A DNA stretch of 64,000 bases from Chitinophaga pinensis. Its GTDB lineage: Bacteria; Bacteroidota; Bacteroidia; Chitinophagales; Chitinophagaceae. The notes beneath the pieces are model-generated. The model saw nothing but the letters and a program-made list of their open reading frames with translations, had not been told where the DNA came from and made no database searches. Below, piece by piece: positions 40,854 to 54,254 of this stretch. A program made the translations under genes and the position numbers. The stretch is from NCBI GenBank assembly GCA_943373145.1, contig CALSBI010000010.1:137379-201378 (forward strand), written 5' to 3'. The stretch's first letter is position 1, and every line of letters begins with the position of its first letter.

Positions 40854-40881
40854 TTATCACCCGCTTGGGGGATTTTGGGGG
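40854..40881 (-). promoter_or_regulatory. shared upstream box, copy 1 (50-77 nt upstream of the CDCL start)
   Basis: The plus-strand sequence is ttatcacccgcttgggggattttggggg. It is nearly identical to the copy at 43546..43573, which sits at the same distance from its start codon. Confidence 0.5.
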
Positions 40882-41075
40882 CGTTGACCGTGGGTCGTTG
40901 ACCGTTGACCGTTGACCGTTTTTCGTTGGCCGTTGATCGTGGGTGCAAAAGGGTGACAGTTGACAGATGTGGAGGCTCGGCCGACACCACGCAGTAGGCG
41001 TGGACGGTTGACGGTTTTTTGAATTGCTACTGAGTGCTTATTTCGTGGCCCCTTGACCGTTGAGCGATAGGGAAG
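40882..41075. repeat. intergenic heptamer-repeat mosaic with inverted core motif (instance f)
   Basis: It has a cgttgac/cgttggc run. The reverse-orientation core ggaggctcggccgacaccacgcagtaggcgtggac is at 40969..41005. The unit gacggttgacggttttttgaattgctact follows. Confidence 0.85.
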
Positions 41076-41089
41076 CTTATCGCAAGCGT

Positions 41090-41902
41090 TTACTGCCCAT
41101 GCAGCGTCAATACCACGCCCGGCCGCACGTTGATACTTGCCCCGGTTTGTAGGCGCAGGCTGCGTATGGTTGCATTGCCAAATACAATGGGCATACGGAT
41201 GGCCCCTGCGGGAATGACCACAATACTGTTGATGCCGGGCGTACTACCACAGTCCCAGTTGGCTGCATCTTCCCATACCACGCTGCGGTTACCATTCCAT
41301 ATCAAAGTGTCGCTACAGATACCAAGGTTCAGTCGATCGCCCTTCCATGCGTCCTCACCCTTACCCGTACCACCATTATATAAACTGTCCAGCATATATA
41401 AAGCAACATGGGTTTTCACTTGTACAAAACCATTGCCTGTTCCGCCATTGTACAGGCTATCGCTGATGTACAAAGCTGCTTGTAGGATAGATGTTTTTGC
41501 AAAGCCATTTGCCATGCCACCATTGTACATACTATCACTGATGTATAAAGCCGCTTGCGGAATGGACGTTTTGATAAAGCCATTGGCCATGCCACCATTA
41601 TACATACTATCACTGATGTACAAAGCCGCTTGCAGTGTGGAAGTTTTGGTAAAGCCATTGCCCATACCACCATTGTACATACTATCTGCCAAACCCAGTA
41701 TATTGCCCATGGCCGTAACCTTACCAAAGCCATTGGCCGTTCCGCCATTGTACAGGCTATCGGTTACCGATAGTGTTATACCCATGGTATTTGCATGGCC
41801 GTTACCATTGGCCATGCCGCCTAGGTAAGGCACTTGTGCATCTGCCGATATGGGCAGCAACAGCAGCATATATATAACAGGGTAACGCCACATATACATC
41901 AA
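41090..41902 (-). CDS. secreted YNGG-repeat protein carrying the shared ~70-aa C-terminal module
   Basis: It has a signal peptide and 5-6 tandem 26-aa units (DSMYNGGMANGF.KTS..QAALYIS; 78-bp DNA period, about 41395..41790). The C-terminus is WNGNRSVVWEDAANWDCG...LRLQTGASINVRPGVVLTLHGQ. It overlaps the upstream gene by 4 nt. Confidence 0.8.
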   Translation of the reverse strand: MMYMWRYPVIYMLLLLPISADAQVPYLGGMANGNGHANTMGITLSVTDSLYNGGTANGFGKVTAMGNILGLADSMYNGGMGNGFTKTSTLQAALYISDSMYNGGMANGFIKTSIPQAALYISDSMYNGGMANGFAKTSILQAALYISDSLYNGGTGNGFVQVKTHVALYMLDSLYNGGTGKGEDAWKGDRLNLGICSDTLIWNGNRSVVWEDAANWDCGSTPGINSIVVIPAGAIRMPIVFGNATIRSLRLQTGASINVRPGVVLTLHGQ

Positions 41903-52800: not shown

Positions 52801-54201
52801 GGTTACCGTGGTGGATACATAAGTAGTAAAACTATTCACCACACAACCCGTGGGCGAACCCAATGCGTTGATGGGCACCACTTTCCAATAGTATGTGGTA
52901 CTGTAATTGAGGTTGGTGGGGGCATAGTTGTTGCTCGACACAGTGGCTACCCTTACAGATGGGTTTTCCGCCGCTACCAAAGCACTGTTTACACCCAAGT
53001 AAATATGGTAGCCCGTTGTAGATGGCGTGGCACCTACCGAAGACCAAAGCAGATTTTGTGCAATAGGGATACCACTGGAGCCATCGCTGGGAGTAAAACT
53101 GGTTGGACAATTGGGTATAGCCTGCGCAGGCATGGTGATGGTGCCGAAAAGTGGATTGGTGGTAAGATAGGCAGGCGTACCGATGCAATTGGTATTGTAA
53201 GCATACACATAAAAGTCGTAGCTGGTAAGCGGAACAAGACCTGTGAGTGCAAAACCGGTAACGTTGCTTGGTTGCGCAAACATTACCGTACCTGCACCCA
53301 ATGTAGTACCCGCAATATAAGTGGTGCCAGATACGGGGTTGGTGGGTGTGGCCCCTGCCGGATAGCGTACAATCAAATGACCGCTGGGCGAACCCGTGGC
53401 AGCGGTAAAGCTGCCATTTATTTGAGAGCCGTGGGGTGCCGCCAATACCAAATTGGTGGGTTGGGCACTGGGGGTTACACAGGGTGCTGGTGAAAACCAA
53501 GTGAAGGTAAGGCCATTGCTAGGCATCAGTGTATTGGATGAGCTACAAGTGGATGTATTGCTGGAACCTGCAACAGTGTTAGACCAATTTGAAATGATTG
53601 CCCGGTTGTTGAAATCTGCATTGCTTGTACCCCGCAGCCCCACTTGGAGGGAATAACTGTTGGTATTGGTGGCGGTGCAGTTGCCATACACCACTTGTAC
53701 GGTTTGATTGCCAGCTACACCCCCGCCCTCTTGCAACGTGATTTGGAAATTCAGCACATCGCCAGTAATGCTGCCCAAATTGTAACGCCGGGCATTGCTC
53801 CATTGAACAACATAAGATCGGTTGGGCGCCGTACCCGTTACGGCAGCTTCAATGCCAGTACCATTGCTTATCAGGTCCCGGGCAAAAGCGGCCACACAAC
53901 CCGCATAGGCCGTGCTGCTGGATATAGGTACATAACCCGTAGCGCTAGAGATGGTAGCGCCAAAAGTGATGTATCCATTGGTGTTTACCGATATGGAATT
54001 GTAGGCTGTACCATTGAATGTAAAGGTAAAAGGGAGCGCTACGGTTGACGTGGCATCATCCCAACCCGAGCTATGTAAAACCGTACCGGAAATGGGTGTA
54101 TAAGTGCCTGCAGCTTGCGCAAAGCTGTAGTTGGATACCTGCGCTTGGCCGGTGCTAATCAATAAGAAAACAGTGACCAACAGTGTATAAAATCTTGCCA
54201 T
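46810..54201 (-). CDS. giant secreted multidomain protein (NIDO-like x2, FN3/Ig-like, PPC-like, lamin-tail-domain-like, shared C-terminal module)
   Basis: The 2463-aa ORF has a signal peptide (MARFYTLLVTVFLLISTGQAQ). LTD-like sequence: IKITEV...DDDFVEISNISAQPINVGGYRF. NIDO-like sequence: FTFNGTAYNSISVNTNGYITFG and IIAPFYDDLN. The C-terminus is WTGTVNTDWHNAANWSCG...LTLQQGATVTVNTGIELKLNGTN. Confidence 0.9.
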   Translation of the reverse strand: MARFYTLLVTVFLLISTGQAQVSNYSFAQAAGTYTPISGTVLHSSGWDDATSTVALPFTFTFNGTAYNSISVNTNGYITFGATISSATGYVPISSSTAYAGCVAAFARDLISNGTGIEAAVTGTAPNRSYVVQWSNARRYNLGSITGDVLNFQITLQEGGGVAGNQTVQVVYGNCTATNTNSYSLQVGLRGTSNADFNNRAIISNWSNTVAGSSNTSTCSSSNTLMPSNGLTFTWFSPAPCVTPSAQPTNLVLAAPHGSQINGSFTAATGSPSGHLIVRYPAGATPTNPVSGTTYIAGTTLGAGTVMFAQPSNVTGFALTGLVPLTSYDFYVYAYNTNCIGTPAYLTTNPLFGTITMPAQAIPNCPTSFTPSDGSSGIPIAQNLLWSSVGATPSTTGYHIYLGVNSALVAAENPSVRVATVSSNNYAPTNLNYSTTYYWKVVPINALGSPTGCVVNSFTTYVSTTVTSKPGGGLWSSPATWQSGVLPLAGDDVVITDGATVTVDIAVTGIRNLTIGQGSSGVLQWGTASNTMTLIGNLTVNPGAKFLPYTSGSLTGQTINIGGNFVNNGFCNLAVRSTAIKMNGALQNGGSANQNFSGVGTFAGNATHAIVDGLSFHGTGNSSITTSRNLVTGNFGLTLGNLNTNGKLFIDNTAQVAGQALNTQVANVVVTGMGAGFATAPVVFGSSVNAWTASGSATSGLRYYTGTRVYLCTVSGTFNATTAPSHTTGTATNGTATLLWLGNLGTIGNPFSLGTTTVGTQYFYGNNLYTCTVAGVPDAAAPPVHVSGVLISGTAAFRYAGTAATVTVNHDATTQTVRSLNLVNAGSGYNTAPSITFSGSFTQAAAATAIYIRPVTGPAVSTVEKSGAANIDGGLTINSNQSALSQSGVGNIIAGVGGVDYTVAPTVGFSGPTGINLVTAGGSSYTTAPTITVTGGTLVSGTALTSADFSIIVQQGKLISVYLNTNTTALYSVPPTLSFTGGGGSGATLAFPAGCWPTATAIIGSNGQLNDFTVTNAGYGYVTAPAVTVGTTSGTAQGGTFTTVASALSCTIALYNLTITTVAPGNALIPNTDDAVIPANRKLNRLTLGGSTTAPGSLNLNGNLELFGSSSPLVLNSGVLNMGGNTLLCSSPLYIGALGTETAHVTNGAITLSLRGGSNGGVGASYPFDATFAIYPGTASGATDGSTVTSLTVSRTAAPAGGAIGTRAYRVSSSNGAIYGTSPNVTMHWNGRDTLVSDNASLRISQAAASAGPWTVRSLATGTGALPATGSKSTSLVTAPGPIVPTGDDYFAWTSTYTPPPALNYTVTRTTNNVYQSIAPVAQGGDGTGTLSSASGDETAQTGINISSAGFVYQGSPVTAISINPNGYISLHNAYATYVSENSWDNTLAAISNGHSTGVIGGDKRNIIAPFYDDLNKTTPVIYYSIAGSKVTVEWFNTTLFGLTGPQLYFQVVLDGSDQSITFNYGNMQLYNGTQNIRYSYSSGISGGFINAIPKPGQIMQQQYENTASFTHENGLTANWGANGLSISPMPRSSIKFIPGTYVPVAPPANLPPANDEPAGAILRPALPAFPSNIAWDTITNTSNLFTTRFATNTATPAICGGATNAKDVWFKFIAPNPTVSVRIYGSGGFIPRLSVYDSLLAPLPNCTVGTQGFTATTTATGLTVNKTYFVRVHHETTGTQATATATVNNGAVTGLSITPGTNYSIPATAYIGYTPQNQGPRISFAGGGGSGAAAAFTTPVTATSVQTLMGANIAFTGGSGYTSAPTVTIESPDWGITGEFGIVLFSLPENDECSGAFALTNLNNPDCVVGQNAIVGNTKGATGSPEGTACGNPDDDLWYKFTATEASTLIKVQATGLLNTAFQVFDGGAAPGACGAKIPVICVNAALPSELDSITLATTIGNTYFIRVYHAGTGAVINDNFSICVSSARPPCVAAPVFPVNGGQACPGSLRLRWPRVPNATIYFVYLNAGAGPATSLAFTGADTSFLASGITPGTYTWRVESVNTLGVSTGCSDFTFIVNAPPNVFITPTGSISLCAPAAQSIALSATSAASPSYQWLNGATPIVRATNASISANTTGQYRLLVTDGVTGCSDTSGTMAVTILAAPHIVITPSVPTISCDSVKLSSFAGNGSIKITEVTLFKIGTGQTAVYPTSIGLLDDDFVEISNISAQPINVGGYRFDDYFTGSSTSNHGYSIPTGTVIPPNEVLVLHLGTGTDDPVNRYFNTGGTTNFYLSNSQVGFVIRDTNGNVADAVGLGGSDTGSYVFAVATGVTATDWTGMVTNASGFAGVIRIAVPDANGPNDWVRSNSPSPLQTIGTYNGGYGLSPLPATWSPTTGLFTNAALTVPYTSGSFAQLYAKPGSTTTYTLQANSSGCPGSNTVTVTVLPASTVSWTGTVNTDWHNAANWSCGGIPTLTTNVVIPTGLSNYPVVGQNTEIKSLTLQQGATVTVNTGIELKLNGTN

Positions 54202-54231
54202 AGTATTTCGTTTTGCCGTTTTGTGGGCTTT

Positions 54232-54254
54232 TTATCAACGATGGGGGCCTTTCC
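54232..54254 (-). promoter_or_regulatory. shared upstream box, diverged copy 4 (31 nt upstream of the 2463-aa gene start)
   Basis: The plus-strand ttatcaacgatgggggcctttcc keeps ttatca-N5/6-tggggg. Confidence 0.35.

Follow-up and report, generated by a model that had tools for sequence, protein, structure and literature searches.

A 64-kb stretch of Chitinophaga pinensis DNA, here called the window, carries a short box upstream of several operons on its minus strand. The box is an evolutionarily conserved palindromic control site of 16-20 bp that lies just before three promoters, those of a CDC-like toxin operon, of an operon for an FGE-like and a YNGG-repeat protein, and of an operon for a sensor kinase and a response regulator. 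It is probably the operator of the adjacent NarL/FixJ regulator (43924-44541), which would then control an autoregulated, activating class-II regulon of these three units. Site counts for this genome cover the window, in which three copies were found, all inside one 6-kb cluster. A literature search found no paper on this cluster or motif in Bacteroidota.

The first copy reads ttatcacccgcttgggggattttggggg on the plus strand (40854-40881) and the second ttatcacccgtttgggggatttttgggt (43546-43573). As the first-pass annotation of this DNA had pointed out, they are located 50-77 nt from the ATG of the CDC-like gene at 40804 and 46-73 nt from the ATG of the FGE-like gene at 43500, and the element is correctly read on the coding (minus) strand, where it has the form AAAAT-CCCCC-N4-GGGTG-A. 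The two copies are identical at 22 of 23 positions (0 expected by chance). When the 23-nt pattern covering both, TTATCACCCG(C/T)TTGGGGGATTTT, was searched with a tolerance of up to 3 mismatches, these two matches and no others were obtained in the window, and none in 100 dinucleotide-preserving shuffles. TCACCC-N5-GGGGATTTT, common to both, recurs without a mismatch in a third copy (46712-46731); 0.05 occurrences of this pattern, which was designed after copy 3 had been seen, are expected at up to 2 mismatches. Its proposed place upstream of the kinase-regulator operon is genuine, and the motif occurs at the same place before every orthologous kinase gene.

The three sites, all on the minus strand, were termed operator C at the CDC-like promoter (40857-40876; AAAAT CCCCC AAGC GGGTG A, with a 14-nt core at 40858-40871), operator F at the FGE-like promoter (43549-43568; AAAAT CCCCC AAAC GGGTG A, core 43550-43563) and operator K at the kinase-regulator promoter (46712-46731; AAAAT CCCCT ATTT GGGTG A, core 46713-46726). 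The window copies read ATCcCCC-N4-GGGTGAT, with CCCCC or CCCCT as the left half-site, and operator C is an imperfect 7-4-7 palindrome of ATCcCCC and GGGTGAT.

Two further copies had been suggested and do not belong to the set. The one before the gene for a 2463-aa protein (54232-54254) retains only CCCCC and GATAA, has TTGAT in the position of GGGTG, and is followed by no -7-like element at the distance found for the other copies. A canonical TACTTTTG is present at about 54276-54283, and this fourth string is placed between it and the ATG at 54201, likely in the predicted 5' untranslated leader of the giant gene. The fifth string (55957-55985) is 110 nt from the ATG of the tail-fibre-like gene at 56095 and matches at only 2-5 of the 10 core positions. 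CATTTTAA does occur 21 nt ahead of the ATG of this gene, but the expected operator position there (14 nt) agrees at just 5 of the 10 core positions. A link of the box to the 2463-aa gene or to the tail-fibre-like gene is not supported.

The conservation of the box was analysed in seven loci that had been fetched by homology to the FGE-like protein alone, 121 kb in total. These were L047, with 84% identity, L048 and L051 with 58%, and L174, L175, L176 and L177 with 44-52%; the latter four were scanned as an unbiased test of the motif. L175 and L176 belong to the assemblies GCA_040384025.1 and GCA_031380515.1. The seven loci contain 19 exact CACCC-N4-GGGTG cores, with 1-5 in each cluster, against 0.1 expected in first-order Markov simulations (maximum 1 in 200). 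L048 and L051 have three cores each and L048 one additional site with one mismatch, all of them intergenic and within the cluster, and 15 further sites were found in L174-L177. In L047 the box is kept as AAAATCACCCAACCGGGTGG / AAAATCACCCAACCGGGTGGTAA, and AAAATCACCCAACCGGGTGGTAA is located directly past the stop of the regulator gene, 63-86 nt ahead of the next ATG.

The coding-strand consensus of 22 sites is AAAA(T/C)CACCC-N4-GGGTGA. Its four central bases are free to vary, but hardly any variation is seen in the half-sites or in the upstream A-tract. The spacing of CACCC-N4-GGGTG is constant in 37 sites, which fits the inverted repeat of a helix-turn-helix (HTH) dimer. The window box is a local variant of this consensus, which is present in every related cluster examined. 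For the positional analysis, the 26 homology-derived sites were taken as the unbiased set, with two in-gene one-mismatch matches left out by location.

In the related clusters the sites are all intergenic, oriented toward the downstream gene and inside the cluster, and none was found upstream of the flanking housekeeping genes. In L047, L048, L051, L174, L175 and L176 they stand before the FGE gene or before the transcription unit that contains it. They also precede every kinase gene examined (L048 7118, L051 5220, L079 5512, L129 2233, L149 2922, L174 4007, L176 6979 and L177 12344). The other intergenic regions of L047 were scanned and contain no box, so not every transcription unit of a cluster has one. 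A motif-like palindrome, CACCCGTTCGGGTA / CGCCCTGCCGGGTG, was also seen within the conserved 418/405-aa gene at apparently matching positions (window 37904-37917 and L051 13924-13937). Without a -7 element at +23, it is probably a coincidence of the coding sequence, although it is conserved.

When 185,579 representative genomes, the source genome not being among them, were scanned with TCACCCNNTTGGGGGATTTT, 45 isolated matches were obtained in unrelated taxa, many of them terminator-like. The first-pass annotation had raised the possibility of a dispersed repeat with hundreds of copies and no bias toward gene starts. Within the available sequence, the window-type string has at most 2 copies in any representative genome, and all sites found sit at a fixed position before gene starts.

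The position of the box with respect to the promoter is strictly kept. After the core, 4 nt and then 19 nt are followed by an 8-mer of the type nAnnTTT. This element was observed at exactly +23 in 23 of the 26 homology-derived sites, and at any other offset between 5 and 44 in no more than 2. In the relatives the +23 elements are TAGTTTTA, TACTTTTA, CATTTTTA, TATTTTTA and CAATTTTA. The housekeeping sigma factor of Bacteroidota has the literature consensus TAnnTTTG/TAHHTTTG for its -7 element and a TTTG near -33. Chen et al. are said to have found in 2007 that a spacer of 19 bp between the two is optimal.

It had been claimed that no TAnnTTTG-type -7 element occurs at these starts, which is wrong, because one follows each of the three genuine copies after exactly 4 + 19 nt. 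On the minus strand these are CAATTTTA at 40827-40834, with a predicted transcription start site (TSS) at about 40822 and an 18-nt leader to the ATG at 40804, GAACTTTC at 43519-43526, with a predicted TSS at about 43514 and a 14-nt leader to the ATG at 43500, and TAAATTTG at 46682-46689, with a predicted TSS at about 46677. These start sites were extrapolated from the numbering of Flavobacterium johnsoniae, in which the promoter positions T-12, A-11, T-8, T-7, T-6 and G-5 are conserved (PMC6847099). CAATTTTA and GAACTTTC agree with the consensus at 4 of 6 positions and TAAATTTG, at the kinase promoter, is perfect. Most -7 elements of the set are sub-consensus, with C or G at -12 and A at -5. 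The ATG follows the -7-like element after 15-22 nt at most sites and after 42-54 nt in the case of the kinase genes, and the N-termini encoded behind the sites resemble signal peptides. A promoter scan of the sigma-70 type was also run on the window and is uninformative for this phylum.

When the F. johnsoniae numbering is applied to the -7-like element, the core occupies -49 to -36, the palindrome is centred at -42.5 and the A-tract lies at -54 to -51. The full 16-bp palindrome computes to about -50 to -35 and abuts the -33 slot. In the window this slot, filled by the four bases that follow the core (-35 to -32), reads ATAA, ATAA and AGTT, with no TTG. Compared with a Bacteroidota sigma-A (Bfr) promoter of the type -33 TTTG / -7 TAnnTTTG, the sites share the -7-type element and the distance of 19 nt between it and the -33 slot, but they have no -33 TTG, the palindrome flanks the slot and most -7 elements are sub-consensus. 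From the centre at -42.5, the weak or missing -33 element and the sub-consensus -7 element at two of the three promoters, we infer a class II placement of the site.

The two-component operon (43924-46631, minus strand; identified with Pfam and NCBIfam) is part of the cluster. It encodes a sensor kinase with TPR, HisKA_2 and HATPase domains (44538-46631, minus strand), for which orthologous kinase N-termini suggest a TTG start at 46631, and a response regulator of 205 aa with REC and GerE domains (43924-44541, minus strand). The regulator belongs to the NarL/FixJ family by NCBIfam, and its closest solved structures are ChrA, VraR, NarL, DesR, EvgA, DevR and FixJ. Between the 2463-aa gene and the kinase promoter, an 11-bp GC-rich hairpin followed by TTTTAT on the minus strand was found at 46756-46783 by direct reading and by a terminator scan, which reported it on the plus strand. 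It is terminator-like and would separate the two, which fits a kinase operon that is a unit of its own.

The box and the regulator gene occur together. In every homology-derived locus a gene for a TPR/HisKA_2 kinase overlaps a gene for a 207-208-aa REC + GerE regulator immediately upstream of the FGE-like unit; L047 is truncated and holds only the 3' end of the regulator gene. The sites precede the kinase gene and, past the regulator gene, the FGE-like unit and others. L178 and L179 (43 kb), two FGE loci of more distant relationship that lack the kinase-regulator pair, have no promoter-type site, and their single exact core is within a coding region and lacks both an A-tract and a -7 element. 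When metagenomes were scanned with the complete architecture pattern, 120 loci were obtained among the matches listed, which are not usable as a census and are dominated by generic AAATCACCC...GGGTGATTT terminator hairpins beside promoters. Eight of these 120 listed loci carry a homologue of the window regulator, as was found afterward by listing of open reading frames (ORFs) and tblastn, five with 66-74% and three with 40-45% identity. The motif is directly past the regulator stop in seven of the eight and upstream of the kinase gene in L149.

Many of the metagenome loci (L059, L064, L066, L067, L090, L091, L100, L101, L123, L131, L143, L152, L158 and others) show another recurrent, highly conserved module, in which AAATCACCC-N4-GGGTGATTTTTTTTT-GATGGGTGT-CCC-GACCTTTG is followed after about 22 nt by ATGAAAGG. 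It precedes an ORF of 65-72 aa in many low-GC contigs and is unrelated to the two-component regulon; its hairpin merely resembles the box. A variation of the system itself was seen in L177 (GCA_039925965.1, 5811-15148), a Chitinophagaceae contig, where two kinase genes and three genes for 207-aa REC + GerE regulators surround the FGE-like gene and a box follows each. These extra copies suggest a duplication and possible diversification of the system.

The recognition-helix region of the regulator, S-x-NT-V/I-KTH-LK-x-IY-LKL, is highly conserved among the orthologues. At about residues 175-180 the window regulator has NTTKTH, and all 13 aligned homologues have NT(V/I)K(T/K)H. We compared the helices for an explanation of the change from CACCC to CCCCC in the operators, but the single V/I-to-T difference is too little to conclude from. 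A co-variation of NTTKTH with the C-for-A exchange in the left half-site of the window operators is possible on this thin evidence.

A protein that binds this palindrome is known from another phylum. The NarL/FixJ protein BldM of Streptomyces venezuelae has Group I targets that share the 16-bp palindrome 5'-TCACcCgnncGgGTGA-3', as defined by ChIP-seq and DNase I footprinting (PMC4125116). This is essentially the same palindrome, with TCACCC half-sites 4 nt apart, and BldM, a protein with a REC domain and a LuxR/GerE-type HTH, binds it as a homodimer. Binding of a LuxR-type HTH dimer to this palindrome is thus experimentally established for a non-orthologous protein. BldM is an actinobacterial orphan that works independently of phosphorylation, whereas the window regulator, from Bacteroidota, has a TPR/HisKA_2 kinase as its partner. 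The two are likened by the palindrome and not by the recognition helix, and the promoter context differs.

The promoter geometry has its counterpart in LuxR and TraR. The lux box is reportedly centred at -42.5, with LuxR acting as a class-II-type activator (attributed to Egland and Greenberg, 1999). As is proposed for the system described here, LuxR with the lux box and TraR with the tra box combine a LuxR-type HTH dimer, a palindrome at about -42.5 in a -35 region that has no good -35 element, and autoregulation; the value of -42.5 in our case is derived from the -7 element and not from a mapped TSS. They differ in being ligand-binding quorum-sensing receptors instead of phosphorylated receiver regulators, and in a 20-bp palindrome of another sequence. 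The spacing of the half-sites is found again in the ComA box of the Bacillus subtilis ComP-ComA system, TTGCGG-N4-CCGCAA. There, too, a two-component regulator of the NarL/FixJ type binds inverted 6-bp half-sites 4 nt apart before its target promoters, but the half-site sequence is different, a third half-site is present, and the sites are further upstream at sigma-A promoters of Firmicutes.

The first-pass annotation had offered two explanations, a binding site of the LuxR-type regulator or an alternative-sigma promoter. The first is well supported by the comparison of genomes, since the motif is conserved, cluster-specific and palindromic, always accompanies the regulator orthologues and precedes the regulator's own operon. 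Its binding by the regulator is what the sequence makes probable, and we infer the identity of the binder and the sign of regulation in this way. The operator (T/C)CACCC-N4-GGGTGA would be a 16-bp palindrome with an upstream A-tract. The TPR/HisKA_2 kinase would phosphorylate the regulator, and a regulator dimer would bind to the palindrome. Once bound, the dimer may recruit or stabilise the RNA polymerase in the way of a class II activator, like LuxR on the lux box. Sigma-A-dependent transcription would thereby be activated at promoters that have no -33 element and mostly a sub-consensus -7 element. The activated units would be the kinase-regulator operon itself, as a positive autoregulation, the FGE-like/YNGG operon and, in this genome only, the CDC-like toxin operon.

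The strongest alternative, which we regard as unlikely, is that the box is a real operator but is bound by a transcription factor encoded elsewhere, or that the adjacent regulator acts there as a repressor. Repressors, too, use positions like that of the site, which abuts or overlaps the -33/-35 region, and the kinase promoter with its perfect TAAATTTG might need no activation. A factor encoded elsewhere is disfavoured by the presence of the motif beside the regulator gene at every locus and by the lack of a promoter-type site in the two loci without the pair. The footprinted NarL/FixJ site of BldM, which the palindrome matches, argues in the same direction. Against repression, most -7 elements depart from T-12 or G-5 of the consensus and a -33 TTG is missing, as is typical of an activator-dependent promoter.

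Several observations nevertheless weigh against an activating operator of the adjacent regulator. A site that overlaps the -35 region could equally be used for repression, and the kinase promoter has its perfect -7 element. With CCCCC or CCCCT as the left half-site, the window copies are poorer palindromes than the relatives' copies with CACCC. The sites from the metagenome scan were chosen by a pattern that already held the spacing, and the two hits inside genes were excluded by their location. In the relatives a stop codon often immediately precedes the motif, and a terminator would be expected at the same place. As the counts are from the window, further sites elsewhere in the source genome are possible.

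It is very unlikely that the box is the -35-type element of an alternative sigma promoter, for instance of an extracytoplasmic-function (ECF) sigma factor, the other explanation offered initially. A fixed position before a downstream promoter element and the missing canonical -33 TTG would be in line with it, and Bacteroidota have many ECF sigma factors. However, the downstream element is of the sigma-A type (nAnnTTT, including the perfect TAAATTTG) at the standard 19 nt from the -33 slot, and a palindrome of 16 bp suits a dimer and not sigma region 4. Neither sigma nor anti-sigma genes were called in the clusters. The 207-208-aa REC + GerE regulators carry faint Sigma70_r4_2 marks; apart from the receiver, the GerE HTH is the only domain called in them.

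A hairpin in RNA or DNA, a terminator or an attenuator between adjacent genes is still less probable. A GC-rich stem of 5-7 bp is possible, in relatives the box is often just past a stop codon, the antisense strand has a T-run after it (TCACCC-N4-GGGTGGTTTT), and similar generic terminators dominate the metagenome matches listed. The coding strand, however, has an A-rich 3' flank instead of a U-tract, and it folds weakly (-5.9 kcal/mol, z -1.5). The sites share one stem sequence, and the changes seen break the pairing without compensation; all three window copies have a C where pairing needs an A. These non-compensatory changes and the weak RNA hairpin favour recognition of the DNA by a protein. 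In addition, the box also stands before the first gene of the cluster, the kinase gene, and it keeps a constant distance from the downstream promoter element but not from the upstream stop codon. The box was not flagged in the terminator scan, and the whole window has no Rfam match.

The least probable explanation is that the box is a module of the dispersed or tandem repeats that fill the intergenic regions, without a regulatory role: copies 1 and 2 do lie within a longer duplicated segment with heptamer arrays, in a window full of arrays and dispersed repeats, but the box is at orthologous positions in array-free genomes, the other arrays of the window carry none, and the representative genomes hold at most two window-type strings each.

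The similarity of copies 1 and 2 does extend past the box. In the alignment it continues for at least 60 nt, and up to about 190 nt, into upstream heptamer arrays of the CGTCAAC type, with the same irregularities at the same distance from the box in both upstream regions, and it ends at the gene-proximal edge of the box (GATAA). The array segment upstream of operator C (40877-41040, minus strand) is homologous to 43569-43690; it was duplicated with the box and is outside the conserved motif. Copies 1 and 2 are therefore the result of a recent duplication, or conversion, and not two independent observations. Taken by itself, this would also have fitted a repeat without function. In the relatives the homologue of the 418-aa gene follows the FGE unit, whereas in the window the CDC-like gene and the copy of the FGE promoter segment are in between. 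This arrangement explains the near-identity of the two copies, and the sequence suggests that the CDC-like toxin operon joined the regulon via this duplicated segment.

The gene labels given at first for the operons behind the three sites are backed by Pfam. Target operon 1 (37682-40804, minus strand) consists of the gene for the CDC-like pore-forming protein (38957-40804) and that for the conserved 418-aa protein (37682-38938). The former scores 22.7 bits with Thiol_cytolysin, below the gathering score of 25 bits. Target operon 2 (41090-43500, minus strand) contains the genes for the FGE-sulfatase-domain protein (41899-43500, PF03781) and the YNGG-repeat protein (41090-41902). The labels REC + GerE and TPR + HisKA_2 + HATPase of the two-component pair were likewise recovered. 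The 2463-aa protein has LTD, GBD_T9SS_assoc and fn3 domains, and a protein with Peptidase_S74 and Por_Secre_tail is also encoded in the window.

The FGE-like and YNGG-repeat genes are kept in all relatives and form the conserved core pair. A protein of 405-425 aa, corresponding to the 418-aa gene, is frequent in the clusters of the relatives, which have in addition box-led genes for fibre-like proteins with PTL_trimer, YadA_head or Peptidase_S74 domains. No counterpart of the CDC-like gene was found in any related locus compared. CDC-like proteins of Bacteroidota are antibacterial pore formers, and a term search of the text of the study describing them found neither histidine kinase nor response regulator mentioned (PMC11169675). 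The YNGG gene, which always comes after the FGE-like gene and encodes a small secreted protein, contains a 75-nt tandem repeat (41445-41686; 3.2 copies, 85% identity) for 25-aa repeats of the form DS(L/M)YNGG(M/T)(A/G)NGF..KTS..QAALYIS.

Heptamer arrays (CGTTGAC/CGTTGGC, CTGGATA/TTGATAC, CCATTAT, AACTTTC, ACTGGGG and others) fill nearly all spacers of the window, on both the 5' and the 3' side of genes. Examples are found at 14509-14623, 32247-32463, 33457-33638, 35363-35610, 37470-37651, 40882-40940, 43575-43925, 54367-54600 and 57629-57962. They resemble the STRR repeats of cyanobacteria, although the host here appears to be a Chitinophagales-like member of the Bacteroidota, and they are absent from the orthologous spacers of L047, L048 and L051.

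Other repeats were noticed in these regions. A module AGTAGCAATT(C/A)AAAAAACC(C)GTCAACCGTC occurs three times upstream of the two strong boxes, at about 41012-41040, 43663-43690 and 43745-43775 on the minus strand. Read on the plus strand it is an array end followed by a T-run, and 43720-43748 was flagged as terminator-like. A dispersed repeat of 38 nt, GATGTGGAGGCTCGGCCGACACCACGCAGTAGGCGTGG, is present in two array-rich spacers in inverted orientation (40966-41003 and 54491-54528; 87% complementary). A pair of 77-nt inverted repeats (9544-9620 and 36058-36134) is 84% complementary over a distance of 26 kb, and its second copy includes a hairpin and a T-run, ggacctgggtggaaaccctggtcc gttttt. 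A tRNA search of the whole window found none.

Taken together, a broader reading is conceivable, which we put forward tentatively: the box would represent the first sequence-defined activator-dependent promoter architecture for the unusual sigma-A of Bacteroidota, at an undescribed two-component regulon of secreted proteins whose cargo is recruited by copying of a promoter segment. In this architecture the place of the -33 element would be taken by a palindrome centred at -42.5, with a constant distance of 23 nt to the -7 element. The architecture seems to be conserved across a clade of Chitinophagales-like bacteria, most of them uncultured. The regulon would comprise the FGE-like/YNGG pair, trimeric fibre-like proteins and, here, a CDC-like pore former of the antibacterial type.

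Little has been charted of how Bacteroidota other than the gut Bacteroides regulate their genes, and the geometry of activators at their unusual sigma-A promoters is essentially undefined. Our analysis supplies a candidate operator with a candidate regulator, and many environmental genomes share the proposed regulon. The duplicated promoter segment offers an example of how a gene is wired into an existing regulon, and the location of the CDC-like toxin gene behind a putative signal-controlled promoter suggests that the toxin is deployed conditionally. If the regulator is confirmed, the operator and regulator pair could become an inducible expression module for bacteria of the Chitinophagales type.

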